From Ignavibacteria bacterium UBA2373 (GTDB lineage: Bacteria; Bacteroidota; Ignavibacteria; Kapaibacteriales; UBA961), in contig DDTD01000098.1 of assembly GCA_002344005.1 (NCBI GenBank), positions 18,432 to 82,431 of the forward strand: 64,000 nt of DNA, read 5' to 3'. The position numbers and the translations under genes are program-made. Of this stretch, positions 4,233 through 54,219 are shown one piece after another (the first letter of the stretch is position 1; each line of letters starts with the position of its first letter). The notes beneath the pieces were generated by a model. The model had not been told where the DNA came from. It worked only from the letters and a program-made list of their open reading frames with translations, and did not search any database.

Positions 4233-5144
4233 TCACACATAGATAAATTTATTTCTATCCAAGATATTTTCTTCATCAAGTCGGTATGCTGCAAGGTGTC
4301 CGCCTTTTGCTACGCTATAATCTAAGCAACAAATATTTTCTTTATATAATGATGGTTCGCCTTTGAGCCAATAATGTCCGAAGAAAACAAATTTGTCCTT
4401 GCTTTGATAATAATAATCTGATAATAATTCCGTACTCTCAATAGGATATTCCGGTAAATTTTCAAGTGGTTCAATACTTATTGATTTATATGTCATATCG
4501 GAAGGATTTTCCCACCATTTAATTCGTATTTCTGTTCTTCGTGTTCCGTCTTTATCCATAAAAAAAAGTCCCTCGGGCATTTTTATTTCTTTTCCTTTTA
4601 ATGTCAGTTCAACCGCTTCATGCAATGGAGTTTCTTTTTTTACTGATTGATAAATTAGTTCATCGGTTAATCGGTTATTTACCAATAATTGTCGCAAATA
4701 ATCAATACTTTTTTTGTCCCAACAGGCATGAACAGCTCTGAAAGTATCCGTTTCATAATAAAGCGGCAAAGTCTTGAACCAGTCCAGATAATCTTCATAC
4801 TCTTTTTGGAGGTTCTGAAATTGTTTTAAGGTTTCATAATGCTGAATAATATTTTTAATGAGATGCTTTCGTAAATGCCCTCCTTCGGTTTCTTGAAAAT
4901 GGAAACACAGCGCATTATATTCATGATTTCCCATTAAAGCAATGGCATTGTCACTGTCAACCATTGATTTCACTATTTCAAGGGTTTCCCTAATTTTCGG
5001 ACCCCTGTCAATATAATCCCCAACAAATAGAACTTTTCTGTCAGGATGGGCATATACTCCTTTATTTTTTGCATAACCCAACTTCAGCAATAATTGTTCA
5101 AGTTTGTCTGCATGTCCGTGAATATCTCCAATAAGATCTATCAT
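4233..5144 (-). CDS. Calcineurin-like metallophosphoesterase (PrpE/ApaH-like Ser/Thr phosphatase or diadenosine tetraphosphatase family)
   Basis: MIDLIGDIHGH...VLFVGDYIDRGP...GNHE metallophosphatase motifs. Start placed at internal ATG 5144 (MIDLIGDIHGH) because the motif GDxHG normally lies within ~10 aa of the N-terminus. The ORF track extends it to 5228. Confidence 0.7.
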   Translation of the reverse strand: MIDLIGDIHGHADKLEQLLLKLGYAKNKGVYAHPDRKVLFVGDYIDRGPKIRETLEIVKSMVDSDNAIALMGNHEYNALCFHFQETEGGHLRKHLIKNIIQHYETLKQFQNLQKEYEDYLDWFKTLPLYYETDTFRAVHACWDKKSIDYLRQLLVNNRLTDELIYQSVKKETPLHEAVELTLKGKEIKMPEGLFFMDKDGTRRTEIRIKWWENPSDMTYKSISIEPLENLPEYPIESTELLSDYYYQSKDKFVFFGHYWLKGEPSLYKENICCLDYSVAKGGHLAAYRLDEENILDRNKFIYV

Positions 5145-5327
5145 AGTGTATAAAGTATTATGTGAATTATAGCACAATCTGTACAGTAGGAAAGTAAACA
5201 ATGTATGCACATTGAACATTATATCCAACTATATCAGCAATGCCATGTATGTTCTCTAAACTACAAAATTTTTGGCTCTTGCAATATAATGAATGCAATG
5301 TCCATAATCATTCGTATTTTTTCCATA

Positions 5328-6392: not shown

Positions 6393-6686
6393 TTATATCT
6401 GTGTGTCGGGAAGATTTTCGAGCTGTATGCCACAAGATAAAAAGCGTACATTGTGCGCAAGATTCATCAATTTCATGCTACCAACTCTATCATAATTTCT
6501 GACATCAGGAAAGTGATACTTGACTATTTCGGCTGGATAATGGCAAACATTTTTTTCTCTTTGGATAACTTTCTCAAAATTTTCACATTTTGCAGAACCT
6601 AACTTCAGCAATAATTGTTCAAGTTTGTCTGTATGTCCGTGAATGTCTCCAATAAGATCTATCATAGTGTATAAGTATATATCCAT
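6393..6686 (-). pseudogene. Truncated, decayed paralog of the upstream metallophosphoesterase (5' remnant only)
   Basis: Translation MDIYLYTMIDLIGDIHGHTDKLEQLLLKLGSAKCENFEKVIQREKNVCHYPAEIVKYHFPDVRNYDRVG matches the first ~30 codons of the 4233..5144 gene almost exactly. It then degenerates (GDYIDRGP becomes VRNYDRVG) and stops after 97 codons. DNA 6597..6745 duplicates 5083..5290. Confidence 0.55.
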
Positions 6687-6848
6687 CTGTATCAGCTATG
6701 TCATATATGTTCTCTAAACTACAAAAATTTAACTACATACTCTCACCCCTAATAATCGCTTTTGTCCGTGTTTCTATGGCTTGGAAAGCACAGAGAGCAA
6801 TGAAGATAGGGCGTTTCCTCGTAATTTGCACTTAGTTTTTCAACACAA

Positions 6849-27538: not shown

Positions 27539-28228
27539 ATGTGCGGCAGATTCACTTTCTACATAACAAACCAAGAATTACAGCAATGGTATCAACTGCT
27601 CAATAATCCGACCATTGACGAACGCTACAACATAGCACCGCTCCAAACAATACCCGTCATCACGCAACAACAAGCCATTCGCCAGCTCCAAATGATGCGA
27701 TGGGGACTCATTCCCGCATGGGCTAAAGATGAATCCATAGCCAATAACCTCATCAATGCACGCGCAGAAACCATCGCCGAAAAACCAAGCTTTCGACAAT
27801 CTCTCAAAAAACGCCGTTGCATCATCCCCATTTCCGGTTTCTATGAATGGAAAAAAAATGGAAAACTAAAACAACCAATGTATATAGCCAATCCTCAACA
27901 ACAACATCTGCCACTTGCCGGACTATGGGATCAATGGACTAATCACAATGGATTGCTCATCAAAACATGCACACTTATCACCGTGCCGCCCAATGAACAA
28001 ATGAATCCAATCCACAATCGTATGCCTGCCATTTTGTCCAAAGATCATATCAATGTATGGCTCGATGAAAATGCAGACATTCAGCATGTGCTCCAACTGC
28101 TCCAACCCTATCCCAACCCATTACACATCTATCCCGTCAGCACCCAAGTCAATTCAGCCGCATTCGATTCACCCGAACTTATCGAACCCGCCGATTCATC
28201 CAATGAACCATTAGAACTCTTCGACTAA
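27539..28228 (+). CDS. SOS-response-associated peptidase (SRAP/YedK, abasic-site DNA-protein crosslink factor)
   Basis: Invariant N-terminal MCGRF with Cys2 nucleophile, RYNIAP, MRWGLIP and PISGFYEW motifs. Confidence 0.85.
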   Translation: MCGRFTFYITNQELQQWYQLLNNPTIDERYNIAPLQTIPVITQQQAIRQLQMMRWGLIPAWAKDESIANNLINARAETIAEKPSFRQSLKKRRCIIPISGFYEWKKNGKLKQPMYIANPQQQHLPLAGLWDQWTNHNGLLIKTCTLITVPPNEQMNPIHNRMPAILSKDHINVWLDENADIQHVLQLLQPYPNPLHIYPVSTQVNSAAFDSPELIEPADSSNEPLELFD

Positions 28229-28330
28229 AATCACCCTCAAATATATCATAAGCCCAATCCAAAACCAATGACCATACCATCCACAATAGACAATAAATCA
28301 ATAGAACAAAAAAAATATAATGACAAAAAA

Positions 28331-28463
28331 ATCCCGCAGGGATGACACGTTTATAGAATTCATATTTCGTGAAAATTCATCCACCCCGTCCTGCGGACAA
28401 GCCTCAATGAGGGGAATTTGAAATACATTAGCGTGAATCTCGCAGCGATGACATGATATTAGA
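28331..28463. repeat. Intergenic hairpin-repeat cluster (copy A: X-Y-X' modules)
   Basis: Module X atcccgcagggatgacacgtttatagaa (28331..28358, palindrome ATCCC-gca-GGGAT). Module Y ttcatccaccccgtcctgcggacaagcctcaatgagggga (28372..28415, palindromes GTCC-tgc-GGAC and CCTC-aat-GAGG). Degenerate X' atctcgcagcgatgacatgatattagaa (28437..28463). Confidence 0.6.
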
Positions 28464-28516
28464 AGTAATGCCATATTTTTGAATCAACGTTTTTGTACTT
28501 TGTGAATCGAATCTCC

Positions 28517-30106
28517 ATGAAAATCACACTCATCCTTTCCTTTGTGCTTTGCTGTGTCATTGCAACAGCGCAAGAACCCGTTCAACTTGAAGTTTGGACA
28601 ACCGTTAAAAGCTATGGCTTTGACCTTATTGAAAACCCTTTTGGTGTAGGTAGTCGTATGGCTTATGTACCTAATTTCAGAAACAAAGAAATTCCGCATG
28701 GCTTTGTTATTTCTTATAGAGAACCCAATACAGATATTCAAGGTTTTAATAAGACTTATACATGGGCATTCACAAAACCAAACGACACGATAAACAGATT
28801 TAGTTGGCCACGCAATTTTTTCCCTTATGCTACTCCCGATATGAACGGTGACAGCCAAAGAGATTTTATGAATGGTACAGGTGTTTTTTATCTTGGAACT
28901 GATAAAGATGAACCGGATACTTTACAAAAATTTCAAATTCAAGCAGGTGGTGTAGGATATGCAAAAATGAATAATGATAATTGTGACGATTTGTATTATT
29001 ATGGTACTTCGCCCGCGATTGTGAACTTTGTTTTTGGTAATAGCCAAGCTGGTACTTATCAAACTGCGAGTGTCATAAGTACATATCTACAAAAAGACTC
29101 TCAATTAGAAGAAGAAATGAAAGCCGTCTATAAAAACAAGCAAGGTCAATGGCGACTTTTGACACAAAGTAAGGGGTGGACTGATGGTCTTTATGAAAGA
29201 ATTTATCAATCAAAAAAATCAGCATTGCGATTATATGCTCTTGAATTTACTGTTATCAATACCGATAGCACTATTGTGACGGCAACACAAATAGATGAAT
29301 ATAAAGACCCAAAATGGTTAGAATTTGAAGAAGACTATAATAGTAAAGACCCAAGTATTTGGTCACCATTTAATTCGTCAAAATTATTATATCAGAGTGA
29401 GCATTATCCAAAAACACTCTATTATGCTTCGATGAATACCATGCCCGACAAAGATAAAAAATATGATTCGTATGCAACATTTTTTGATCTTACCAATGAT
29501 AAAATTGTTCCATCGAATGCTGTCGTTAATGTTGCTGCACCCGAATGTAAAATTCTTAAGCATAGCATTGATGGTGATAATCGTGAAGATATGTATGTAA
29601 AATCAGGTCCATTTATCTATTTTTATTCTGTAGATGCCACAGGTATTATAAAAAACACATTACGCTTTACTTTACCGGAAGATAGATACAAAAGTGGATT
29701 AAATACACTGCAATCTATTGCCGACATTAATAATGACGGATTAGATGATATCGCTCTCATGAGTTCAGACAATACTGTTGGAAATTATTTTGCGATTGTG
29801 CTTGGTAAAAACATACTAACGCATACTATAGAAGAATCTGATCAATATTTTTCAATTGGTTCCCCGTACCCTTTGCCCAATAGTTCACAATTAACAATAC
29901 CTTTACGTAGTGAAAAAAACGGATTGTATTCCTTAACCTTGTTTTCCGTTCAAGGTTCTGCATATCCATTATTTGTAAATAAAGAAATGAACGAGGGAAA
30001 AATGGATTTTATGATGGATATTTCTCTCTATAGTTCCGGTAATTATATTCTTCGATTCTCCGATGGCAAAACTTCGGTAGAAAATAATATTATCATTACG
30101 CATTAA
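28517..30106 (+). CDS. Hypothetical secreted protein with T9SS C-terminal sorting domain
   Basis: Signal peptide MKITLILSFVLCCVIATAQ. C-terminal ~80 aa beta-sandwich tail (SLTLFSVQGSAYPLF...GNYILRFSDGKTSVENNIIITH) typical of Por_Secre_tail. Flanked on both sides by the hairpin-repeat family (see findings). Confidence 0.5.
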   Translation: MKITLILSFVLCCVIATAQEPVQLEVWTTVKSYGFDLIENPFGVGSRMAYVPNFRNKEIPHGFVISYREPNTDIQGFNKTYTWAFTKPNDTINRFSWPRNFFPYATPDMNGDSQRDFMNGTGVFYLGTDKDEPDTLQKFQIQAGGVGYAKMNNDNCDDLYYYGTSPAIVNFVFGNSQAGTYQTASVISTYLQKDSQLEEEMKAVYKNKQGQWRLLTQSKGWTDGLYERIYQSKKSALRLYALEFTVINTDSTIVTATQIDEYKDPKWLEFEEDYNSKDPSIWSPFNSSKLLYQSEHYPKTLYYASMNTMPDKDKKYDSYATFFDLTNDKIVPSNAVVNVAAPECKILKHSIDGDNREDMYVKSGPFIYFYSVDATGIIKNTLRFTLPEDRYKSGLNTLQSIADINNDGLDDIALMSSDNTVGNYFAIVLGKNILTHTIEESDQYFSIGSPYPLPNSSQLTIPLRSEKNGLYSLTLFSVQGSAYPLFVNKEMNEGKMDFMMDISLYSSGNYILRFSDGKTSVENNIIITH

Positions 30107-30230
30107 GAGAGGAATATACAATGAAAAATCTACTTTTGAACAAAGCAATACATCTATTCTTCATTGTGGCTCCTTCTCTTTCGACAAGCTCAATAAACCG
30201 ATAATTCCAAAGGGATGATATAATAATAGA

Positions 30231-30368
30231 AAAAATTCATCCACCCCGTCCTGCGGACAAGCCTCAATGAGAGGAAGATTCGAAATTCAATCCCACAGGG
30301 ATTACATGTTTATAGAAAAACATCCAGCCCGTCGGACTGTGTCCGCCACCCATCAAGATGTGAAGATT
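30231..30368. repeat. Intergenic hairpin-repeat cluster (copy B: Y-X-Y' modules)
   Basis: Y (30231..30277) differs at 1 of 44 positions from the Y of copy A. X atcccacagggattacatgtttatagaaa (30290..30318). Diverged Y' catccagcccgtcggactgtgtccgccacccatcaagatg (30321..30360, palindrome CGGAC-tgt-GTCCG). Confidence 0.6.
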
Positions 30369-30436
30369 TGGGCGATGAAATGAACACAATTGTTGATAGT
30401 TGTCACTGCTGTGGTTGATGAACAGTACTTTGCCTA

Positions 30437-33400
30437 TCAATGCAGAAATGGTAACATTACCGAATATGTGCCGGCATTGAAATGCAGATAATAAAGTCCA
30501 TGCGGGAGTGTTTGTTGGGTGTAATTGAGTGTATGTTCGCCTTTGGGAACCATGTCTTGGAGCAAGGTTGCGACTTTTTCTCCCATTGCATTATAGAGTG
30601 TGATGGCGGTTGATGATGCGAAGCCGAGCGAGTAACGCACTATGATATTGCCTGCTGTTTGGTCAATGGTTGCGGAGTATTTGGTGTCGCTGGTGCTGAT
30701 GAGCCGCCCTTGAGCAAAGCACGATGTGACGCTGACTGTGGCTTGTGCGGGTTGGATAATAAAGCAATTGCCTGTGATGCCATTGATAAAGATATGGTAT
30801 TGGAGTGAATCGGCTAAGAATACGGTGAATGGTATATGGACTATGGTGCCATTGTTGCGAAGTTCTGTTCCATTGAGATCAAGGTGTATATATTGATTTT
30901 GTCCTTGGTTTTGTATTGTTTCTTGTATGTTCCAATCGGCATTTATTGCGCCTGTTGTGATTGGTTGAGAGCTTCGTGCCATCATTCTTGCGGGATAATG
31001 GATTGTAAGTCGTAGTGAATCGGCTTGGATATGATTCCAATCATCCGCGAGAGCATTGATGGTGAGTGTGATGGGTTTGCCGGGTTCAATGGCGGCTGTG
31101 TCATTGGCGGTTAATTGCATGGTTGTCGGTTGATGATTGCCAAAGATATGGTAATGGAGTTCTTCGCCTGTGCTGAAACGGAAGATATAGTCGGCAGAAT
31201 GGTTGCCGAATGTTGTGGGCGCGTATGTGATGGCGAATTGTTTGGCTTCATCGGCAGCGAATTGCACGGGAAAATTTGCCGGATTGATTGAGAATGCATC
31301 GCTATTGGTTGATGGCATTGTCACAGTAAGTGTGACGGGTTTGTTTTTGTGTGGGTTGGTGATGGTGATCATGCGTGCTATGCTTTTACACGCTGTTGTT
31401 GTTCCCATGTCAATAGTCATTGTTTGGGTGCATGATTTGACGGTAATGCTGAGTGAGTCTGTGGCTGTGCAACCATATTCATTTGTTGCTATGCAGTAAT
31501 ATGTTGTTGTTTGTGAAGGGCTTGCAAGTGGCGAAGGACAATCATAACAAGAAAGGGAGCCGTCTTTGGGAAACCAATCATAGCGTGGCGATGGCGAACA
31601 GTTGAGCATAATCTGTTGTCCTTGGCAGAGTATTGTGTCATTGCCGATTGCGATAGTATGGTCAGATAGCTGTATTGTGACGGAGTCCGTTTTTTTGCAA
31701 TAATCGTCGTTTATTTCTACATAATAGGTTGTTGTTTGTGTTGGTTTGACGAGAGTTTCGGAGCAATCACTGCATTGTATATCTGATGCTCCATACCAAC
31801 GATAGCGTTTTCCTCCACTTGCTGTGAGAGTGGAGCTTTGTCCTTGACAAATAGTGTGTGATGGCGTTATGGTGGTATTCATGGATGTGAGAGTGATTGT
31901 CACGGAATCTATGGCGAAGCATTGCGCGGATTGATTGCCTTGCACATAATATGTGGTTGTTGTTTTGGGTTTGGCTATGGGATTGGGGCATTGAGTGCAT
32001 GAGAGTCCTTCGGCAGGATACCAGAAATAGGATTGAGTGCCGACAGCGGAGAGTTGGACGGAATCTTGTGCGCAGAGAGTGACATCATCGGAGGCGGTGA
32101 TGGTGAAGTTTTTGACGGTGACAGTAACGGAATCTTCGGCGGAACAATCGGGCGTTTGATAAATTCTGACATAGTATGTTGTTGTTTCCGTTGGTTTGAC
32201 GATGGTAGTGCGGCAATCGTCGCAAATCAGTGTCGGATGTTTTCGCCATTGGTATCGTATTCCTTTGCTTGCCGTAAGAGCGATTGCCTCTCCTTTGCAT
32301 ACTGCTGTGTCTGCCCCTGCATCGGCTTTTACGCCATCTACTGAGATGGTGATGGAATCATAAGCGATGCACGTTTGATCATAAGCGGTGACATAATATG
32401 TTGTTTTTTGTGTTGGGGTGGCAAGTGGTGTGGGGCAATCCGAACAAGAGAGCGTGGGGTCGGGTCGCCATTGGAAGGTTTTTCCTCCTATGGGTTGCAA
32501 ACGAACGGACATACCTGAACATACGGTTGTGTCATTACCCAATTCAGTGACCAATGCCTTGGTGTCCACTATGACGGTGTCGTCACGGTAGCATCCTTCT
32601 TTTGTTTGGATGTGAACATAGTATATGGTCTTTTTGAGCGGTGAAGCAATGGGATTAGGACAATCGGTGCATGATAAAGTAGGGTCTTTTCGCCATGTAT
32701 AAATATCGCCTCCTGTGGCATTGAGTTCCACATTGGAACCCGGGCATATACTTCTGTCGGGTCCGGCAGTTGCTTGCAATAGAGTAATGTCCACCGTGAC
32801 GGAATCGAGTCTGAGGCAGCCATTGACATCATATATTTTGACATAGATTTTGGTCTTTTTGCGAGGCGCAACCGTTGGATTGGGACAATGGTTGCATGAC
32901 AGCGAGGGGTCTCCATACCATTCATATCTATGAGCATCGGAAGCATAGAGTTGGGCTTTTGCTCCAAGGCATACTGCTGTGTCATTGCATACTTTACCAC
33001 CTTGGAAAAAAGTCCTGTTCACCCAAACGGTATCGAAAATAGGGCAATCGAAGACATCTTTTGATTCGACGATATAGCGTGTTGATTTTCTGGGATTGGC
33101 ATTGACAGAAGCGCATGTTGGGCAATCGAGTGTGTTGCTCGGAGTCCATTTATATGTTCCATTGCCTCCGGTAACAGTAAGGGGAGCCGTTAAACCAAAA
33201 CAAAGTGTTGTATCGCCTTTTGCAGTGAGTGACGGAAAAGGAGGTTTAGTATCCGGTATGGGCTGAATGCCACCCCAAAACATATAGGAATCCAAATAAC
33301 CATAGCCGCTGACAAAACAGCCGAAGCTTTCGGAAGCAGTAAGGAGATTAGTTCCGTCATTTACTTTGATATGGGCATATATATATTCCAAACAGTTTTT

Positions 33401-34732
33401 ACCTGCGGCTGAAGAGGCGAAATTTTTGAATTGGGTTTCGGGCGGTATTCTTTTTCCATTCAATAAGAGAGAGTTTTTTGCTCTATTGGCAATAATGACG
33501 GTGAGAAAATTTGACAGATAGACTTTGCTGTTTGGATTGTCTTTTGTGCCTACAAAGAGCGGATTGGCAACAAGGTATTCTTTGCGGTATTGTCGGGATG
33601 GCGGCACAATCATAAAAGCCGGATCGCCATCTCTGGGCGGAGCAGCCGACACAGCCGTGCCTTTCATATATCCCACAAGTATCGGAGCCGAAGCAAATAT
33701 GCGCATAGGACCTACTGCTTTGATGGTATAGACCTCTGAACGCGACAGCACCTTAGTAAGCGCACCATTAATTATTATTTCGGTATTGTCAAATTGGCTG
33801 ATGATACGCACACGGTCATTGGGGACGGAGGTGATGGAAGAAATGTCAATCGGAGCAACAAAGAATTCATTGCCCCAAAGCTCGAGAGGCGGCATTTGCT
33901 CAAAAAGATGATCGCGTGATGTGGGTAATGTATCCGGCACGGGCGAACGTTGATGTCCGGCAAATACAGCAATGGGTTTATCTGCTTTGACAATAGTGTT
34001 TGTGATATCGGGCGATAAAGCAGAAAGGGTAATTAATGCTTGCAGTAAGCATGATTCGCCTTTTTGTAAGGTGACGGTAAACGATTGAGTATTGCGCCCG
34101 ACAAGCGACACCGAGGATTGGACATCCACTTTTGTATTATCTTCGGTAGCAAGGATAATTGCTTGCGAAGCCGTAGAGCGATCATCTAATAGTGATGGTT
34201 CCAAAATGTTTTTGAATCCATCGGAATTGTAAGCCATGATTTTATATTCTTTGCCTAATGCCTCAATAGGGTAGATAAGAGCGGCATCGCTGGTTAAATC
34301 GGCTTGGTTCAAAGCATTGACTGATATGGGTTCAGGAGAGGCAATAGAAAAATAAGGCAGACCTATTGTACCATTGTCACCATTCTTCATTCTCCCATTG
34401 GTAATTGACATACCCAATGGTTCATACTCTTGCCAACGGAAAGCAAGTGCTCCAAATCCATTCGCATCCAAAGTGACTGTTTTTGTGGCATTAGCCCCCA
34501 TGCGGCTTTGAGCATTCACAGTAACAACAAAATCTTTTTTTCCTGTGAAAAACAAACGCAATGAATCACGCGAAAAAATCGTGTCATGCACATTGGGCAT
34601 AAAAGCCACGAAAAATTGTGTTCCATGAGATATAGGGATAGCTTGCGCAGAAACCAATCCCCGAGAACAAAGTATGACTATCAGAATGAGAAGTGATGTG
34701 AAGCAATTCCCTTTTGAAACAATGGAAGACAT
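30437..34732 (-). CDS. Giant (1431 aa) T9SS-secreted adhesin-like protein with eight tandem ~75-aa Cys-containing Ig-like repeats
   Basis: Signal peptide. Central array of repeats of the form Y.W.PDPTLSC.DCP.P.A.P...TTYYV......C...DSVTV.V (8 copies, aa ~535-1130). C-terminal T9SS tail ...AITLYNAMGEKVATLLQDMVPKGEHTLNY...GLYYLHFNAGTYSVMLPFLH. Confidence 0.6.
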   Translation of the reverse strand: MSSIVSKGNCFTSLLILIVILCSRGLVSAQAIPISHGTQFFVAFMPNVHDTIFSRDSLRLFFTGKKDFVVTVNAQSRMGANATKTVTLDANGFGALAFRWQEYEPLGMSITNGRMKNGDNGTIGLPYFSIASPEPISVNALNQADLTSDAALIYPIEALGKEYKIMAYNSDGFKNILEPSLLDDRSTASQAIILATEDNTKVDVQSSVSLVGRNTQSFTVTLQKGESCLLQALITLSALSPDITNTIVKADKPIAVFAGHQRSPVPDTLPTSRDHLFEQMPPLELWGNEFFVAPIDISSITSVPNDRVRIISQFDNTEIIINGALTKVLSRSEVYTIKAVGPMRIFASAPILVGYMKGTAVSAAPPRDGDPAFMIVPPSRQYRKEYLVANPLFVGTKDNPNSKVYLSNFLTVIIANRAKNSLLLNGKRIPPETQFKNFASSAAGKNCLEYIYAHIKVNDGTNLLTASESFGCFVSGYGYLDSYMFWGGIQPIPDTKPPFPSLTAKGDTTLCFGLTAPLTVTGGNGTYKWTPSNTLDCPTCASVNANPRKSTRYIVESKDVFDCPIFDTVWVNRTFFQGGKVCNDTAVCLGAKAQLYASDAHRYEWYGDPSLSCNHCPNPTVAPRKKTKIYVKIYDVNGCLRLDSVTVDITLLQATAGPDRSICPGSNVELNATGGDIYTWRKDPTLSCTDCPNPIASPLKKTIYYVHIQTKEGCYRDDTVIVDTKALVTELGNDTTVCSGMSVRLQPIGGKTFQWRPDPTLSCSDCPTPLATPTQKTTYYVTAYDQTCIAYDSITISVDGVKADAGADTAVCKGEAIALTASKGIRYQWRKHPTLICDDCRTTIVKPTETTTYYVRIYQTPDCSAEDSVTVTVKNFTITASDDVTLCAQDSVQLSAVGTQSYFWYPAEGLSCTQCPNPIAKPKTTTTYYVQGNQSAQCFAIDSVTITLTSMNTTITPSHTICQGQSSTLTASGGKRYRWYGASDIQCSDCSETLVKPTQTTTYYVEINDDYCKKTDSVTIQLSDHTIAIGNDTILCQGQQIMLNCSPSPRYDWFPKDGSLSCYDCPSPLASPSQTTTYYCIATNEYGCTATDSLSITVKSCTQTMTIDMGTTTACKSIARMITITNPHKNKPVTLTVTMPSTNSDAFSINPANFPVQFAADEAKQFAITYAPTTFGNHSADYIFRFSTGEELHYHIFGNHQPTTMQLTANDTAAIEPGKPITLTINALADDWNHIQADSLRLTIHYPARMMARSSQPITTGAINADWNIQETIQNQGQNQYIHLDLNGTELRNNGTIVHIPFTVFLADSLQYHIFINGITGNCFIIQPAQATVSVTSCFAQGRLISTSDTKYSATIDQTAGNIIVRYSLGFASSTAITLYNAMGEKVATLLQDMVPKGEHTLNYTQQTLPHGLYYLHFNAGTYSVMLPFLH

Positions 34733-39581: not shown

Positions 39582-40601
39582 TTATCTGCACGCTTCCTTA
39601 ATTAACGCCGCTGCTTCTTTATGACCTAACTCCTTTGCTTTTTGTAAATCTGCACAAGCTAATGTTTCTTTCCCATCTTGTCCATATAGCAGTGCTCGAT
39701 TAAAGTATGCCTTGGAATCTTGCGGATTAAGTTCGATTGCTTTGCTATAATCCGCAATGGCACCATTGCTATCTCTTAAATCTTTTTTTACTATACCACG
39801 ATTATAATATGCCTTGGCATATTGAGGATTAAATTCTATCGCTTTTGTCCAATCTGCAATGGCTCCATTTTTATCACCTAAACTATATTTAGCAACACCA
39901 CGATTAAAATATGAGTCCGCAAACTGAGGATTAAATTCTATGGCTTTCGTATAATCGGCTATCGCGGCATTTTTGTCGCCCAAATCATCTTTAGCTACAC
40001 CACGATTATAATATGCAATGGCATCTCGAGGATTAAGTTCTATTGCTTTAGTATAATCGAAAATTGCGCCTTCTTTATCGCCTAAATCATCTTTAGCTAC
40101 ACCACGATTATAATATGCCTTAGTATCTTGAGGATTAAGTTCTATCGCCTTCGTATAATCTGCAATTGCACCCTTCTTATTTCCTAAAGCTGATTTAGCA
40201 TTGCCACGATTATAATATGCCTCAGCATATTGAGGATTAAGTTCTATCGCCTTTGTCCAATCTGCAATAGCTCCATATTTATCACCTAAAGCGGATTTAG
40301 CAAGACCACGATTAGAATATGCCTCAGCAAGTTGTGGATTAAGCTCAATCGCCTTCGTATAATCAGTTATGGCGCCATTTTTATCATCTAAATCTGATTT
40401 AGCAGTCCCACGATTATTATATGCAGCAGCATATTGAGGATTAAGTTCTATCGCTTTGCTAAAATCGTCAAGGGCTTCTTTAAGCAAACCTTTCTGGACT
40501 TTTGCAAGACCTGCTGTAAAATAACTTTCGGCGGTTTGGGCTGTGGCGCTCATCACCGCGGCAATACACACGACAAAAAAAACGATTACTCTCTTTTTCA
40601 T
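39582..40601 (-). CDS. Secreted tetratricopeptide-repeat protein (9 consecutive TPRs)
   Basis: Signal peptide MKKRVIVFFVVCIAAVMSATAQ then repeated AxxYxNRGxAKxxLGDxxGAIxDYTKAIELNPQ units. Confidence 0.8.
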   Translation of the reverse strand: MKKRVIVFFVVCIAAVMSATAQTAESYFTAGLAKVQKGLLKEALDDFSKAIELNPQYAAAYNNRGTAKSDLDDKNGAITDYTKAIELNPQLAEAYSNRGLAKSALGDKYGAIADWTKAIELNPQYAEAYYNRGNAKSALGNKKGAIADYTKAIELNPQDTKAYYNRGVAKDDLGDKEGAIFDYTKAIELNPRDAIAYYNRGVAKDDLGDKNAAIADYTKAIEFNPQFADSYFNRGVAKYSLGDKNGAIADWTKAIEFNPQYAKAYYNRGIVKKDLRDSNGAIADYSKAIELNPQDSKAYFNRALLYGQDGKETLACADLQKAKELGHKEAAALIKEACR

Positions 40602-40665
40602 GAGGGCTTTTTGATTAATGGGTATTTAATATTTCTTCAAAAATATGAAATCTGTGATTCAATCA

Positions 40666-41589
40666 CTATTTCTTGCAGTTTTCTTCTATCATTACTTCCG
40701 CTTCTTTATGACCTAATTCACTTGCTTTTTGCAAATCAGCACAAGCTAATGTTTCCTTCCCTTCTTGTCCATATACGATAGCTCGATTATAATATGCCTC
40801 CGCGAATTGAGGATTAAATTCTATTGCCTTTGTAAAATCGAAAATGGCTCCTTTAGTATCACCTAATCTCGATTTAGCATATCCACGATTTAAATATGAC
40901 GATGCATCTTGGGGATTAAGTTCTATCGCTTTTGTGTAATCTGCAATGGCACCTTCTTTATCGCCTAAATTATTTTTAGCATATCCACGATTAGTATATG
41001 CCTCGGCAAATTGAGGATTAAGTTCTATCGCTTTAGTATAATCAGCAATAGCAGCATAGTTATCTCCTAAAGAGAACTTAGCAACACCACGATGAGTATA
41101 TACATCGGCAAGTTGAGGATTAAGTTCTATTGCTTTTGTATAATCAGCAATGGCTCCTTTAGTATCACCTAATTCTGATTTAACAATTCCACGAACAGCA
41201 TATACATCGGCACTTTGAGGATTAAGTTCTATTACTTTCGTAAAATCGTCTATTGCACTGTATTTATCTCCTAAAGAGAACTTAGCAAGACCACGATTAG
41301 TATATGCCTCGGCTAGTTGAGGATTAAGTTCTATTGCTTTGTTACAATCGGTAATAGCTCCATAGTTATCACCTAAAACATTCTTAGCATTGCCACGATT
41401 AGTATATGATGCCACGGCAGATTTAGGGTTAAGTTCTATTACTTTGGTAAAATCGGCAAGGGCTTCTTTATATAATCCTTTCTCGGCTTTTTCAAGACCT
41501 GCTGCAAAATAACTTTCGGCGGTTTGGGCTGTGGAGGTCATCACCGCGGCAATGAACACGACAAAAAAAACGATTACTATCTTCTTCAT
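40666..41589 (-). CDS. Secreted tetratricopeptide-repeat protein, tandem paralog of 39582..40601
   Basis: Same signal peptide (MKKIVIVFFVVFIAAVMTSTAQ) and TPR unit. Upstream region is also duplicated (40602..40680 resembles 41590..41660). Start moved to ATG 41589. Confidence 0.8.
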   Translation of the reverse strand: MKKIVIVFFVVFIAAVMTSTAQTAESYFAAGLEKAEKGLYKEALADFTKVIELNPKSAVASYTNRGNAKNVLGDNYGAITDCNKAIELNPQLAEAYTNRGLAKFSLGDKYSAIDDFTKVIELNPQSADVYAVRGIVKSELGDTKGAIADYTKAIELNPQLADVYTHRGVAKFSLGDNYAAIADYTKAIELNPQFAEAYTNRGYAKNNLGDKEGAIADYTKAIELNPQDASSYLNRGYAKSRLGDTKGAIFDFTKAIEFNPQFAEAYYNRAIVYGQEGKETLACADLQKASELGHKEAEVMIEENCKK

Positions 41590-41694: not shown

Positions 41695-41745
41695 AAAAGG
41701 CGTCCACCCCGTCAGAATGCGTCTGCCACCACTCAAGAGCTGACA
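41695..41745. repeat. Third, diverged copy of the Y module
   Basis: cgtccaccccgtcagaatgcgtctgccaccactcaagagctgacat aligns with Y' at 30321..30360 (ccaNcccgtc...gtcNgccacc...tcaaga). Contains palindrome CAGA-atgcg-TCTG. Lies 45 bp upstream of the type ISP fragment. Confidence 0.45.
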
Positions 41746-41788
41746 TTACCCGAAGAATTTTGAGGATACCTTTGCACCGATAGATATA

Positions 41789-42235
41789 TTGGACTATATT
41801 TATGCAGTGTTACATTGTCTTACATACAGAGAGTTCTTGAAAATTGATTTTCCGAGAGTGCCATATCCGAAAGACAAAGCCACATTTGCGAAATTGGTAA
41901 AACTTGGCGGTCAAATCAGAGAAATCCATTTATTGGAAAGTGCTGTAGTAGAAAATTATATAACGCAATATCCGATAGACGGTAATAATATGGTGGGGAA
42001 AGTGAAATATCACGATGGCAAAGTATATATAAATGAAAGCCAATATTTTGACAATGTTCCGCTTATTGCTTGGGAATTTTATATAGGCGGCTATCAACCT
42101 GCGCAAAAATGGCTAAAAGACCGGAAAGACCGCACACTTGATTTTGACGATATTCTCCATTATCAAAAAATTATAGTTGCTTTGTCAGAAACCGACCGTT
42201 TGATGAAAGAAATAGACCGTATAGAGATAGAGTGA
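41789..42235 (+). pseudogene. Orphan C-terminal fragment of a type ISP restriction-modification enzyme / N6-adenine methyltransferase (C-terminal specificity-domain remnant)
   Basis: YIYAVLHCLTYREFLKIDFPRVPYPKDKATFAKLVKLGGQIREIHLLE resembles the conserved C-terminal domain of LlaGI/LlaBIII-type type ISP enzymes (YIYAVLHSP.YR.KY...LK.DFPRIP). Only ~148 codons are present, with no upstream helicase or methylase portion. Confidence 0.45.
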
Positions 42236-49563: not shown

Positions 49564-52500
49564 ATGAAATTATTTACTGCCGTGACAACCGCATTGCTGT
49601 TCTGGGGAGCAATGTCGAGTGTTCAGTCACAAACTGTGCAGCTTTTATCACCGGGTGGTTCACCCAATGAGAGTTATCGTGCAGGTAATTCCGTTGATTT
49701 GGTGTATCAAACATCACCCTCCACAGTGACACCTCGCCCGCGCTATCGCTTTGAATTCAGCACATCTCCGAACGGACCTTGGACTTCAATCTCAGGTGCA
49801 ACCAATGTGGTGGACAGTAATGCAAGCGGCACTGTTCGCGCAGGTCGTTTTATTGGTGCTTTTCGCATTCCGGCAACGCCAACAAATACGGGTTATGTTC
49901 GCCAAGTATTATTAAGCGATCCGTCAAAAACAAGTATCAGTCCTTTTCCCTTTAAAATCGAACAACCGCAAACAACACGCATAGACGAATTTTTACAAGG
50001 TGCTGTCGGTGCGGGCGAAACACGTACATTGACACGCGATAAAGTCTATGGAATTAAAGGATATTTCCACGTTGATAATGGCGGTACTTTAGTTATTGAA
50101 CCGGGAACTATTGTCGTTGGCGATCAAGTGGGTGTTAATAGTGCACTTGTCATCAATCGTGGCGGTAAAATTATAGCCGATGGCAGAGCCGATGCACCTA
50201 TTGTTCTTACAAGCAGTGCGCCTCCGGGCTTACGTGCTCCGGGTGATTGGGGTGGATTACTCATTTTCGGTAAAGCAGTTATTAATAATCCGGGCGGTGA
50301 AGCAGCTATGGAAGGCGGTGTTGCCGATCCGAATAATAAATCACGTTGGTATTATGGCGGTAATGATGATAATGATAATAGCGGAATATTGCGCTATGTG
50401 CGTATTGAATTCGGCGGTATTGCTTTGCAACCGAATCAAGAATTAAACGGACTTACATTAGGTGCTGTGGGACGTGGTACTATTATGGAAAAAGTACAGG
50501 TCAGCTATGCTAATGATGATGCTTATGAATGGTTCGGCGGCACGGTTAATGGCAAATATCTTATCTCAACTTCCTGCCTTGATGATGATTTTGATGCGGA
50601 TAATGGTTGGAGCGGCAAAGTACAATATGCCGTAGCTCAACGTTCAACCAATCGCGCCGACCAATCCACAAGTCAAGCATTTGAAACCGATAATGATGCA
50701 AGCGGCTCATTCCGAATTCCACGCACATCGGGTATATTTTCTAATGTGACAGTTATCGGTCCATTACAAGATGTTTCCGCCACACCGAATCCTCGATTCG
50801 GTGCAGCGGCGCAAATCCGACGCGCTTCTCTCTTATCCATCTATAATTCAATATTTCTCGGCTGGCCCCGCGGTATCGAAATTGCGCAAACGCCAACGAT
50901 GAATGCTGCATATAATGATACAGTTCAAGTGCGTAATTGTGCATGGTATGGCATAAAAACATCATGGCTTAATCTTGCGGGCGGTACTCCCCCATCGGGA
51001 ATGACAACATCGTGGATAAGCACAGGACGCTTCAATAATGTGAATGATGCATCGAATAATCCGTCTGCGGCATTACTCGAAAATCCTTTTTCGGATATAG
51101 CATTCAGTGCCGTTCCATTAGCAGGTTCTCCTGTATTGTCAGGTGCTTCCTTTGTTCGTGACGGTGTTCCGGCAATTGATGATTCATTTTTTGATAAAGT
51201 TTCTTTCCGTGGTGCATTCGGTAGTGATATGCGCTGGGATTATGGATGGGCAAATTATGATCCTGTCAATGCTGCCTATATCGCAGGCGCACCAACAGTT
51301 GCCGGAGCTTCATTACGTTTGACGGCACCTTCAACTGGACGCGTTTATGTGGCAGGTACAACAGCAACTATCGAATGGGACACCACCGGTACACGTGGTT
51401 TACGCTATAAATTCCAAACCGCTACTTCTATAGACGGTCCTTGGACAGATATTCAAGGTGCGGAGAGTATCACCGATGAAGGCAGTACACGCGGTCGCAT
51501 CGTCAATGGATATAAAGTGCCGTCCACACCATCAACCAATGCATATATTCGCATGGTTGCATTACGCAATGATGGTAGTATCAATACAGATGCATCCAGT
51601 ATTCTTGGACCTTTAACTATTGTTTCTTATACACTTACCTCACCCAAAGGCGGCGAAGTTTATCGTGCGGGATCACGTCAATTATTAGCATGGAAACAAG
51701 AACCACAAGGCGAATTAATCGGCACAGTCAAATTACGCTTCGAGTATGCAACATCTAATTCGGGACCTTGGACACCAATTCCGGGTGCAGAAATGGTCGA
51801 AGACAATGATGATAAAGTATTACAAGGCGGCTTAGTATTACCTCTTACCCAAACTGAAACTGCTTTTGTCAGAATGACCGTGCTTAATGAAGATGGCAGC
51901 CCTACAAGTATAAGTTCTACGAATGCACAGCCCTTCAAAGTTATCGGTATTCGCTTACTTTCTCCGGCAAGTGCTGCATCGCTCAAAGGCGGCAGCAAAG
52001 TGGACATTATGTGGGATACCACAGCAACAGCAGGATCACGCTTCCGTTTCCAATATCGCTTGAATGATACCGAACAATGGAATGATATCCAAGGGGCAAC
52101 GAATGTCTTAGACGCAGGTGCAAATCGTGGTAAAATTGTAGGCGGTTTTACCGTGCCAAATGTAGCCACAACAAACGGTTATGTTCGCATGACAGCACTT
52201 GCTGAAAATGGCAATCCTATTGAGGCTCTTTCCTCACAAAATGAACAACCATTTACTATTACAGTTGATAAACCCGTTGATGGCATCGTACGCATTATCA
52301 CTCCGGGTGCAGCAGCGGGCGAACGCTATCGTCCGGGACGCTCTTTAGATATTACCTATGATACAGTAGGTGGTTACCGTCGTCGCTATCGTTTTGAGTA
52401 TGGCACATCCGCCAATGGTCCTTGGACTGTCATTAAAGGTCTTGAAAATATTATTGACAGTAATAGAAGCAGCACACTTCGTCGCGGACGTATTACCGGA

Positions 52501-54219
52501 GGTTTCCTCGTGCCTGACCAGCTAACAAAAACAGCATATTTACGCATGGTATTATTATCGGATGAATCCAAAGTTGATATTACCGATAATCCTATCGAAA
52601 TATTCCGCCCGACAGCAAGTAAAGTGGATTCCGTTTTAAGCGGTTCTATCAATAAACGTGTATTTCTCTCTAACACTAAAATATATGGTTTACGCGGTTA
52701 TGTACACGTTGACAATGGCGGTGTTTTAGTCATTCAACCGGGTACAATAATTCTTGGTGATTCAGTAGGAAAAAATTGCGCACTTGTTGTGAATCGCGGT
52801 GGTAAAATTATCGCAAAAGGTACAGCAAAATTACCGATAGTATTTTCAAGTCTTGCAGCTCCGGGACAACGAGAATCCGGTGATTGGGGTGGATTACTAA
52901 TTTTCGGTAAAGCAGTTATTAATAATCCGGGCGGCGAAGCAGCTATGGAAGGTGGCGTTGCCGATCCGAATAATAAATCACGCTGGTATTATGGCGGTAA
53001 TGATGACAATGACAGCAGCGGTATTCTTGAATATGTCCGTATTGAATTTGCAGGACTTGCATTACAACCCAATCAAGAATTAAATGGCTTAACGATGGGT
53101 GGTGTTGGTCGCAAAACAGTAATGAATAATATTCAAATCAGCTATGCCAATGATGATTCATTCGAATGGTTCGGCGGTACCGTTAATGCAAAAAATATTA
53201 TTTCTATCGGTGCATTAGATGATGATTTTGATGGTGATAATGGCTGGAGTGGAAAAGTACAATTCGCTATAGCACAACGTCACCCTAACAGAGCAGATCA
53301 ATCCACAAGTCAGGCAATGGAAATGGATAATGATGCGAGCGGCTCAACACGCAAACCACTCACCTCCCCTATTTTTTCCAATATGACTGTAATCGGTCCT
53401 ATCAATGATACTTCCAAAGTGCCGAATCCTCGTTATGGTGCTGCCATACAAATACGTCGCAATGCCAGAACATCTGTTTTCAATTCAGCAATTCTCGGCT
53501 GGGGACGCGGAATGGAAATTGCACAAACTACAACGATGAATGCCGCAAAAAATGATTCCTTACAATTCCGCAATAATGCAATGTTCGGTATTCGTTCTAC
53601 TCTCTTAAATTTGGCAGGTGGCACTCCGCCGACAGGCATGACAACAGAATGGATTAATACTCCTGCATTTAATAATACAATGGATAAATCATCACCTCAA
53701 AAAGCAGGTTTACAAAATCCTTTCGAGATTGTTGAATTTAATCCTGCTGCAATGGAAAGTTCACCATTACTTAGCGGAGCAAATTTCACAAATAGTGGTA
53801 TTATTGCAATTGATGATGCCTATTTTGAAAAAGTACAATTCCGCGGTGCAATGGGATTACAACGCTGGGATGCAGAATGGACAGAATATGATCCTATTAA
53901 TGCTGAATATAAAGCACAACAAGCTCCGGTTTCTGTGAATGAAAACAGCATAAATACTTCTGATATTGTGGCATCGGTTTATCCGAATCCCACTCATGAT
54001 AAATGTATTGTGAAATATCAAACACGCAAAGACGGAATGGTAAAAGCACAATTTGTCAATGCTATGGGCGACATTGTTTCTACATTCTTTGCCGAGCAAC
54101 AACAAGCGGGATTTTATCAATTCAATATTAATGTTCAGGATATGCCAACCGGATTATATTTTGTTCGTATTGAGTCTGATAATAACACAATGACTATACC
54201 TGTATCAGTGTATAAATAA
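49564..54219 (+). CDS. Giant (1551 aa) T9SS-secreted protein with an internal ~870-aa duplication (two beta-helix-like modules plus multiple Ig/Fn3-like modules)
   Basis: Signal peptide. Two copies of the segment beginning HVDNGGTLVIEPGTIVVGD...GDWGGLLIFGKAVINNPGGEAAMEGGVADPNNKSRWYYGGNDDND (aa ~170-540 and ~1045-1420). Repeated ~100-aa modules SP..G..YRAG...D..Y.T...NGPWT.I.GA.N..D. C-terminal T9SS tail ...GLYFVRIESDNNTMTIPVSVYK. Confidence 0.6.
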   Translation: MKLFTAVTTALLFWGAMSSVQSQTVQLLSPGGSPNESYRAGNSVDLVYQTSPSTVTPRPRYRFEFSTSPNGPWTSISGATNVVDSNASGTVRAGRFIGAFRIPATPTNTGYVRQVLLSDPSKTSISPFPFKIEQPQTTRIDEFLQGAVGAGETRTLTRDKVYGIKGYFHVDNGGTLVIEPGTIVVGDQVGVNSALVINRGGKIIADGRADAPIVLTSSAPPGLRAPGDWGGLLIFGKAVINNPGGEAAMEGGVADPNNKSRWYYGGNDDNDNSGILRYVRIEFGGIALQPNQELNGLTLGAVGRGTIMEKVQVSYANDDAYEWFGGTVNGKYLISTSCLDDDFDADNGWSGKVQYAVAQRSTNRADQSTSQAFETDNDASGSFRIPRTSGIFSNVTVIGPLQDVSATPNPRFGAAAQIRRASLLSIYNSIFLGWPRGIEIAQTPTMNAAYNDTVQVRNCAWYGIKTSWLNLAGGTPPSGMTTSWISTGRFNNVNDASNNPSAALLENPFSDIAFSAVPLAGSPVLSGASFVRDGVPAIDDSFFDKVSFRGAFGSDMRWDYGWANYDPVNAAYIAGAPTVAGASLRLTAPSTGRVYVAGTTATIEWDTTGTRGLRYKFQTATSIDGPWTDIQGAESITDEGSTRGRIVNGYKVPSTPSTNAYIRMVALRNDGSINTDASSILGPLTIVSYTLTSPKGGEVYRAGSRQLLAWKQEPQGELIGTVKLRFEYATSNSGPWTPIPGAEMVEDNDDKVLQGGLVLPLTQTETAFVRMTVLNEDGSPTSISSTNAQPFKVIGIRLLSPASAASLKGGSKVDIMWDTTATAGSRFRFQYRLNDTEQWNDIQGATNVLDAGANRGKIVGGFTVPNVATTNGYVRMTALAENGNPIEALSSQNEQPFTITVDKPVDGIVRIITPGAAAGERYRPGRSLDITYDTVGGYRRRYRFEYGTSANGPWTVIKGLENIIDSNRSSTLRRGRITGGFLVPDQLTKTAYLRMVLLSDESKVDITDNPIEIFRPTASKVDSVLSGSINKRVFLSNTKIYGLRGYVHVDNGGVLVIQPGTIILGDSVGKNCALVVNRGGKIIAKGTAKLPIVFSSLAAPGQRESGDWGGLLIFGKAVINNPGGEAAMEGGVADPNNKSRWYYGGNDDNDSSGILEYVRIEFAGLALQPNQELNGLTMGGVGRKTVMNNIQISYANDDSFEWFGGTVNAKNIISIGALDDDFDGDNGWSGKVQFAIAQRHPNRADQSTSQAMEMDNDASGSTRKPLTSPIFSNMTVIGPINDTSKVPNPRYGAAIQIRRNARTSVFNSAILGWGRGMEIAQTTTMNAAKNDSLQFRNNAMFGIRSTLLNLAGGTPPTGMTTEWINTPAFNNTMDKSSPQKAGLQNPFEIVEFNPAAMESSPLLSGANFTNSGIIAIDDAYFEKVQFRGAMGLQRWDAEWTEYDPINAEYKAQQAPVSVNENSINTSDIVASVYPNPTHDKCIVKYQTRKDGMVKAQFVNAMGDIVSTFFAEQQQAGFYQFNINVQDMPTGLYFVRIESDNNTMTIPVSVYK

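Follow-up and report, generated by a model that had tools for sequence, protein, structure and literature searches.

Hairpin repeat arrays around a T9SS cargo gene of a Kapabacteria genome are REP/BIME-like and include members of a cross-phylum family associated with DUF559 nuclease genes

In a stretch of 64,000 nucleotides from Ignavibacteria bacterium UBA2373 (GenBank assembly GCA_002344005.1, contig DDTD01000098.1, positions 18,432 to 82,431 of the forward strand; hereafter the window), a gene for a cargo protein of the type IX secretion system (T9SS) is bracketed by near-identical copies of an intergenic repeat, which raises the question of what these repeats are and whether they have moved the gene. 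An earlier note, made by reading the same DNA, had described a module Y that occurs on both sides of the gene with a one-base difference between the copies, together with a second module, X. The Y pair was borne out (28372-28416 and 30232-30276, 44 of 45 positions identical), and its 36-nt core occurs exactly twice in the window where shuffled sequences are expected to contain none. The explanation that we favor, with a probability of about 0.7, is that the arrays are clustered hairpin repeats of the repetitive extragenic palindrome (REP) and bacterial interspersed mosaic element (BIME) type, that they are non-autonomous copies of a selfish element, and that the Y family is linked to DUF559 nuclease genes. 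The modules and the gene that they bracket are as follows (R1 is a covariance model of the Y family described below).

28330 to 28358, plus strand: X1 module, hairpin ATCCC-GCA-GGGAT followed by GACACGTTTATAGAA; its minus-strand reading is TGTC-headed (TGTC-ATCCC-TGC-GGGAT).
28372 to 28422, plus strand: Y1, a derived member of the Y family with TCCACCCCGTC, the hairpin GTCC-TGC-GGAC and AAGCCTCAATGAGGGGAAT (R1 24.8 bits, E 5e-6).
28436 to 28464, plus strand: X' module, 79% identical to X1, just 5' of the cargo promoter region.
28517 to 30106, plus strand: T9SS cargo gene (529 aa, Por_Secre_tail), which the arrays bracket; it is listed for orientation and lies outside the repeat.
30175 to 30206, plus strand: possible decayed 3' half of a Y, GACAAGCTCAATAAACCGATAATT, read from the sequence with low confidence.
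30203 to 30231, plus strand: X'' module, 72% identical to X1, stem ATTCC/GGGAT including a T.G pair.
30232 to 30276, plus strand: Y2, 44 of 45 positions identical to Y1 (R1 17.2 bits).
30289 to 30317, plus strand: X2 module, 90% identical to X1.
30319 to 30370, plus strand: Y', with CGTC, CGGAC-TGT-GTCCG and GCCACC (R1 36 bits, E 1.8e-9).
41699 to 41750, plus strand: Y'', a solo decayed copy between the start of a TPR gene and a truncated Type ISP gene fragment (R1 28.1 bits).

The order of units is X1-Y1-X' in the upstream array and (possible half Y)-X''-Y2-X2-Y' in the downstream array, and all window copies of Y are intergenic. A degenerate X pattern matched 28331-28358 and 30290-30317 with 0 matches expected, which confirmed the X copies, and the 11-mer TCCASCCCGTC occurs in the 64-kb window at the four Y sites only (28380, 30240, 30323 and 41703). 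The two diverged Y-like units that had been proposed at 30320-30370 and 41695-41745 are real because the independent model R1 matches both: its window matches are 30319-30370 (36 bits), 41699-41750 (28 bits), 28376-28422 (24.8 bits) and 30236-30291 (17.2 bits), and an unfiltered run over the window gave nothing else below E = 0.5. The small palindromes ATCCC/GGGAT, GTCC/GGAC, CCTC/GAGG and CGGAC/GTCCG are present as described. The description of the modules as hairpin-rich stood in that there are several short local hairpins, but the folding of whole arrays is unexceptional (DNA z-scores of -0.65 to -1.75 against shuffles). Similarly, stops in all frames are found in the downstream array (6 of 6 frames), but the upstream array has them in only 5 of 6 frames, and 4 of the 6 frames of a single Y are open.

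As judged by comparison of sequences, Y is a partly decayed member of a family of approximately 50 nt that is kept almost unchanged across phyla. Members read TCCACCC-CGTC, a covarying hairpin of 4 to 5 bp, and GCCA-CCCCTCAAGAGGGG-AAT, and the canonical element consists of TTCCACCCCGTC, a short variable hairpin, and GCCACCCCTCAAGAGGGGAAT. The first genome-wide pattern (TCCASCCCGTC N13-19 TCAAKRG, one genome per species) was too degenerate, so that most of the at least 120 loci listed were chance matches and approximately 22 among the matches listed were useful. Canonical copies among these listed matches came from Kapabacteria (L042, L062, and L065), a metagenome-assembled genome (MAG) of Thermotogaceae (4 loci), a termite-gut Bacillota MAG (5 loci), several members of the candidate phyla radiation (CPR, Patescibacteria), and MAGs of Nitrospirota, Hyphomicrobiales, and Desulfobulbaceae. 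The family is also found in Francisella. At least 26 distinct canonical copies were collected, and R1 was built from 26. CGTC, which lies within the search pattern, is invariant in these 26 copies and present in all 4 window Ys. Two segments that the search did not require, GCCACC preceding the imposed part of the pattern and GGGAAT following it, show at least 90% conservation, and (G)CCA after the hairpin, likewise not imposed, occurs in at least 90% of the canonical copies. This (G)CCA is present in Y' and Y'' and replaced in Y1 and Y2. The units that had been called diverged are thus the ones nearest to the canonical element, Y' being the nearest in the window, with a decayed second hairpin, and Y1 and Y2 represent a derived subtype. 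Intermediate forms connect Y1 to the canonical Y, because a metagenome scan with the head of Y1 and Y2 returned the series CACCCCTCAAGAGGGG, CACCCCTCAATGAGGGG, and AAGCCTCAATGAGGGG.

The covariation analysis of aligned copies showed that helix 1 of Y covaries and helix 2 is invariant. R1 matched 70 sites in related loci totalling 273 kb and, when the set was widened, 87; in these 87, 4 of the 5 pairs of helix 1 change on both sides (101 cells compared with 34 in shuffles) with 94% paired, one pair occurring as AU (29), CG (24), UA (19), and GC (2), and helix 2 never varies. RNAalifold had missed helix 1 on the raw MAFFT alignment, in which hairpins of different length were misaligned, and the structure was given to the model before realignment. 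No known Bacteroidota repeat family had been recognized in the modules, and this held when Rfam 15 was searched (no window match at the gathering score; at more permissive thresholds, 28200-30450 gave nothing relevant at E < 10, nor did eight loci with canonical copies at E < 0.1); yet Y belongs to this wider, cross-phylum family. Blastn of the Y consensus against plasmids and phages produced chance-level partial matches only, one viral contig contains the 19-mer, and literal Y-family sequences in the full-text literature matched unrelated primers only. In 2 CPR genomes purD contains a canonical Y in frame, within its GARS_C domain (L037:363-410 and L038:575-625). The peptide of this insert, ...STPS(L/RK)RATPQEGN..., precedes the conserved VIFHAGTK motif, and the hairpins differ by 3 nt between the 2 genomes, so the reading frame is kept.

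The Y family is associated with DUF559 genes. In L170, which belongs to whole-genome shotgun project VYMG01 as does a relative of the window strain with approximately 89% average nucleotide identity (ANI), a 144-aa DUF559 gene lies between Y(-) copies on the left and 2 Y(+) copies on the right. When the protein was used as a tblastn query against the 173-locus set, six matches were obtained, all beside Y elements, and Pfam assigned DUF559 (PF04480) to the 4 of these proteins that were tested. The order Y(-)-DUF559-Y(+) is found in L155, L069, L156, and L170; L171 differs in having a decayed Y-like element as its downstream copy, and L169 in that the flanking Ys are direct. Whereas these loci had been collected by way of Y, a second set was collected by way of the protein. 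In it, Y-encoded peptides were found at the ends of the open reading frames (ORFs) in 61 of the 116 closest scorable DUF559 homologues (at least 48% identity): a Y(-) appears as PLLRGG or SPLEGW, and a Y(+) as HPSRGE, TPQEGN, or PPLKRG. On a Kapaibacterium contig (L185), R1 places a Y(-) immediately upstream and a Y(+) downstream of the DUF559 gene, and in Francisella tularensis (L181) a DUF559 gene at 3001-3387 is accompanied by a Y(-) at 2907-2963 and a Y(+) at 3368-3418. This F. tularensis gene has type I restriction-modification genes (N6_Mtase, Methylase_S) on one side and AAA_21/SMC_N ATPase genes on the other (L181:1-5500), surroundings that look like a defence island.

The solved structure nearest to the flanked DUF559 protein is 3hrl, an 'endonuclease-like protein'. 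The DUF559 protein VsrA is an active endonuclease that causes DNA damage in vivo in Caulobacter (PMC12907096), and the clade that contains DUF559 includes Vsr and the homing endonuclease I-Bth0305I (PMC3424549). In the literature mentioning DUF559, no link to repeats was found. We infer that a DUF559 nuclease mobilises Y, and this enzyme may be the so-far-missing spreader of such repeats. The nuclease would nick or cut at or near Y, recombinational repair would carry copies of Y, alone or together with the gene, to new sites and homogenise the copies, and unequal recombination between units would produce gain and loss of X-Y units and deletions adjacent to them; the window elements would be passengers of the intergenic DNA around the cargo gene. 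More tentatively, and with less than an even chance, the Ys could belong to a previously unrecognised class of selfish units, as their ends and as abundant solo derivatives; these units would carry a DUF559 enzyme and would have spread across Kapabacteria, CPR, Bacillota, Thermotogota, and Francisella.

A DUF559 gene also adjoins a repeat in Escherichia coli K-12, where the stop codon of ycjD, the only close DUF559 gene of this species, is overlapped by a partial BoxC-like element (fabI-ycjD intergenic region, L187:11040-11420; L188). This BoxC-like half is followed by a duplicated copy of the ycjD 3' end and then, approximately 170 nt downstream, by a canonical TMECO. The fabI-BoxC-ycjD-sapF arrangement is present in 3346 of 5426 complete E. 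coli genomes and the segment is missing from 38%. Uropathogenic E. coli (UPEC) 536, the one segment-lacking genome examined, diverges from K-12 approximately 40 nt from BoxC.

The edges of the window arrays coincide with indels and with a truncated gene, which lies next to Y''.

41750 to 42232, plus strand: fragment of a Type ISP restriction-modification gene, covering Type_ISP_C profile positions 184-342 only.

This fragment corresponds to the last 159 of the 342 Type_ISP_C positions, lacks the upstream part, and begins at the last base of Y''. An intact 1079-aa Type ISP homologue is found near a cargo homologue in L142. Y'' is 92-93% identical to the Ys beside the DUF559 unit in L170, which at the homologous place upstream of the TPR gene contains an extra 2.7 kb between a Y(-) and that gene. 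The 2.7-kb segment consists of a hypothetical gene, Y(-) copies, the DUF559 gene, and two Y(+) copies, where the window has the solo Y'' only. Within it, 5' of the hypothetical gene, is a tandem array of approximately 26-27-nt units (aactaaaaaatgtatgctaa...; L170:3000-3250) that is absent from the window. The relative also differs upstream of the cargo gene, where it carries one additional 77-nt unit made of an X plus half a Y. Orthologous loci thus differ in units and genes at array edges; at the cargo gene, the approximately 89% ANI relative (VYMG01) keeps both arrays in place.

Several observations weigh against a selfish element spread by a DUF559 nuclease. The canonical copies were found with a pattern derived from the window Ys, so that the conservation of 18 positions was imposed, and the covariation alignment consists of 87 matches that were realigned and fitted to R1 itself. 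The Ys that flank DUF559 genes in CPR genomes are direct and not inverted. The 2.7-kb difference also includes an unrelated gene, and the orthology of the 2 places relies on matches of 78-92%. No pair of occupied and empty sites was found whose clean junctions would define the limits of the mobile unit or its target site. The intergenic regions on both sides of the cargo gene are more than 95% identical to those of the relative whereas the flanking 10 kb is 88.8% identical, which could reflect a host-level function rather than selfish spread. Finally, tblastn detected no DUF559 gene or remnant in the 64-kb window; the window copies of Y would hence be non-autonomous.

The X module, a 29-nt hairpin that is lineage-specific, alternates with Y. 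Its 27 distinct copies in related loci have the consensus AATCCC-nnn-GGGAT-gAyAyGtTtATAGAA, and the minus-strand head, TGTC in X1, varies in other copies (TGTA, TATC, and others). X was also considered as a truncated inverted Y, but the similarity is too weak to claim this. A metagenome scan returned 25 relevant loci in which X and Y alternate as in the window, with array periods of 86-186 nt compared with a spacing of 86-106 nt in the window, and with composite tandem units of up to 186 nt, for example 3' of another T9SS cargo gene in L147. Contigs L159 and L160, which carry several arrays, derive from sample ERZ761607, which also contains the window strain, and have similar coverage. The mosaic arrays reported by the earlier note are thus present, although the alternation of X and Y is more regular than it had described, and the X-Y arrays at many other Kapabacteria loci support its view of them as non-coding, multi-copy, REP/BIME-like mosaics. 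For the same reason the modules are not debris of a local duplication: they occur beyond the 3 sites known in the window. In Kapabacteria, arrays are found directly 3' of genes for T9SS-sorted proteins in L147:9121-11100, L170:46-2650, L185:8776-10040, and L140:8001-10200. This position could be due to chance, as there are many such genes per genome, or to a preference for 3' ends.

Compared with described systems, the window repeats are REP/BIME-like and nearest to the CGTC-tagged REPs, and they are a member of no described family. CGTC-tagged REPs, which include Neisseria dRS3 and Rickettsia RPE-4 and RPE-6, consist of an unpaired CGTC/TGTC (or CCTC) head, an 8-9-bp stem starting A-T, a 4-5-nt loop, and a CCA tail; they occur in Proteobacteria, Chlorobi, Bacteroidetes, Spirochaetes, and Thermotogae, with F. 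tularensis listed among the carriers, are in some cases intragenic, and lack a dedicated transposase (Di Nocera, De Gregorio & Rocco 2013, PMC3733652). The first hairpin of Y has the same layout, CGTC-stem-loop-stem-(G)CCA, with an unpaired CGTC head and the CCA tail, and many X copies read TGTC-ATCCC...GGGAT on the other strand. Both groups span several phyla (including Thermotogae, Chlorobi/Bacteroidetes, and Francisella), and both have oppositely oriented pairs, in-frame intragenic copies, and no transposase; beside Y repeats no transposase was seen, and it is the DUF559 gene that is flanked. In contrast, the stems of Y and X are of 4-5 bp with loops of mostly 3 nt, only X starts with AT, the long invariant flanks of Y (TCCACCC... 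and ...CCCCTCAAGAGGGGAAT) are outside the described families, and a DUF559 link is unreported for CGTC REPs. As in BIME-type arrays, the window X and Y are regularly spaced, clustered, intergenic hairpin units of more than one type. REP/BIME systems and the REPtron, in which paired REPs (REPINs) accompany a REP-associated tyrosine transposase (RAYT), likewise comprise short intergenic hairpins in mosaic arrays with alternating module types, and a small nuclease-type gene flanked by inverted repeat copies, with solo or paired non-autonomous copies being far commoner. However, the gene flanked by Y encodes a PD-(D/E)XK Vsr-like DUF559 protein and not an HUH Y1 transposase, the head of Y is CGTC and not GTAG, and its sequence is conserved across phyla whereas REPs are species-specific. 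Y also resembles the Rickettsia palindromic elements (RPE) in being translated through in frame inside a conserved gene (purD in the 2 CPR genomes), but the window copies are all intergenic, and sequence family and host range differ. Finally, Y is small, non-autonomous, and multi-copy like MITEs, the transposable elements of the miniature inverted-repeat kind, and may derive from a gene-bearing unit bounded by inverted copies. Unlike MITEs, Y and X units form tandem arrays, and no terminal inverted repeats within the unit or target-site duplications were seen at the window copies, where there is no empty site to define the ends.

The earlier note had also considered that the repeats might be recombination sites by which a 1.8-kb cassette holding the cargo gene (28517-30106) was mobilised or duplicated. 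Such sites could be attC-like or of a comparable kind, and in favor of this reading a single gene is bracketed by near-identical direct Y copies. Through a MiaA look-up we found a second, paralogous cargo locus B in the genome (miaA-cargoB-msrB). The order msrB-cargoB-miaA is present in many assemblies, including a 1.6-Mb contig and NODE_136 of sample ERZ761607, and NODE_497 of the same sample is 99.9% identical to the window across the cargo locus. Homology between the window locus (A) and B extends only from 28435, in X', to 30181, that is, from the X' that forms the left end of the common segment to a breakpoint within the possible half Y, and so ends inside both Y copies, not at them. Two contigs had the appearance of the cassette in new contexts: L125 encodes the exact cargo protein next to miaA and is 100% identical to the window from 28467 to the contig end at 30255, with five mismatches, all in X', and L133 joins the left side of the window locus to a different 3' half and msrB. 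This candidate was rejected because the two are reciprocal chimeras of the paralogues (L125 combines B-left with A, and L133 combines A-left with B) with junctions in the shared promoter/5' region. In 2 other locus B assemblies, L174 and L176, the first 164 nt of the common segment are 99.4% identical to the window. L125 and L133 are either true recombinants or assembly chimeras and are uninformative on Y. A 63%-identical cargo homologue in an unrelated context could be taken as a moved cassette, since it keeps X' and the promoter (95%) and the downstream array (85%); its retention of these regions indicates that the arrays travel with the conserved ends of the cargo family. The Ys, however, are not the junctions. 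Y also occurs in many unrelated contexts beside many gene types, no GTTRRRY core was apparent on reading the modules, and Pfam detected no integrase in the seven neighbouring genes, the rest of the window not having been scanned for one. Movement of the cargo gene as a Y-bounded cassette is therefore not supported by the sequence comparisons and is the least probable of the explanations considered here. The paralogues themselves have near-identical 5' ends, a diverged centre, and 3' ends that are 84-92% identical (window 28435-30181 against L174-L180), and across species the ends of the cargo family are conserved while its middle varies, a pattern expected when recombination diversifies a surface protein.

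The conservation of the intergenic regions could instead indicate a host function at the RNA level, with the modules serving as hairpins at transcript ends (bidirectional terminators or 3'-end stabilisers, roles of the kind proposed for REPs) or as small RNAs. The layout of the genes is compatible with this: the upstream array follows the SRAP gene (27539-28228, plus strand), which is in tandem with the cargo gene; the downstream array separates the cargo gene from the convergent gene for a 1431-aa T9SS adhesin (30437-34732, minus strand); and other copies of the Y family lie mostly between tandem or convergent genes and rarely between divergent ones. Moreover, 4 terminator-like sites occur in the window, on X1(-), X2(+), Y'(-), and Y2(-), when 1.6 are expected, and to judge from these the modules may act secondarily as weak transcript-end hairpins between convergent genes. 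Nevertheless, a primary RNA role is unlikely. A consistent strand orientation relative to genes, which would be a sign of it, was not found among the family copies: orientation is mixed overall, and in the termite Bacillota MAG 7 of 7 copies are antisense. This mixture and the in-frame copies within purD favor an element that acts at the DNA level, and the lack of an Rfam match, the unremarkable folding z-scores, and the broken second hairpin of Y' and Y'' also speak against an RNA function. A DNA-level element might in turn need no enzyme. Y, with its two CCACCCC blocks and GGGG, would then form an intrastrand triplex or other non-B structure, stall replication, and cause local instability, spreading by recombination alone with incidental DUF559 adjacency. 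Its block order (C-run, hairpin, C-run, G-run) recalls BoxC, and the BoxC/PIT/TMECO triplex motifs are widespread, highly conserved, and found at rearranged loci, and no mobility gene has been identified for them (Holder et al. 2015, PMC4666352); Y is similarly intergenic, conserved across taxa, and located at rearranged loci, and its edges in the window coincide with breakpoints. But its blocks of 4-7 nt are below the 6-15-nt stems that define such motifs, an extra covarying hairpin lies between its two like-strand runs, and the TMECO pattern CCCTCNCCC-N3-6-GGGNGAGGG-N3-GGGNGAGGG (three blocks of at least 6-9 nt) has 0 matches in the window. This explanation, which also leaves the sequence identity across phyla and the tight DUF559 linkage unaccounted for, is very improbable. 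We therefore prefer the reading of the arrays as clustered, non-autonomous REP/BIME-type copies of a selfish element.

Other repeats in the window are of different kinds. A 102-nt tandem repeat present 13 times (39582-41589) encodes 34-aa TPR units of two adjacent paralogous TPR genes and is an ordinary coding repeat, and five repeats at a spacing of approximately 225 nt within the adhesin gene (31494-32440) are probably Ig-like domain repeats. An internal duplication with a spacing of 2637 nt and 73-77% identity (50040-53855) lies within a 1551-aa ORF (49564-54219). Stretches of 87 and 53 nt that are 89-95% identical and approximately 1.5 kb apart, at the ends of neighbouring minus-strand ORFs (5067-5272 and 6588-6730), may be the result of a recent local duplication or gene conversion.

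CGTC REPs, BoxC, and other short palindromic repeats are abundant, and they are linked to genome instability. We know of no established origin or means of spread for them except for the GTAG REPs with their RAYT transposase, and to our knowledge no mobilising activity has been found for CGTC-type REPs or BoxC in about 30 years. In the window genome, the repeats stand at sites of difference in gene content between close relatives. For annotation, Y explains many short 'hypothetical' ORFs and ORF extensions (PLLRGG, SPLEGW, HPSRGE, TPQEGN) as well as assembly breaks in MAGs. The main interest, however, is outside the window, in a cross-phylum hairpin element tightly linked to DUF559 genes. This link provides a concrete candidate enzyme with homologues in culturable organisms (F. 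tularensis, and YcjD of E. coli), and, if the proposal is true, DUF559 nucleases would be the partner that the 'orphan' CGTC-type REPs, and perhaps also BoxC of E. coli, have been missing.

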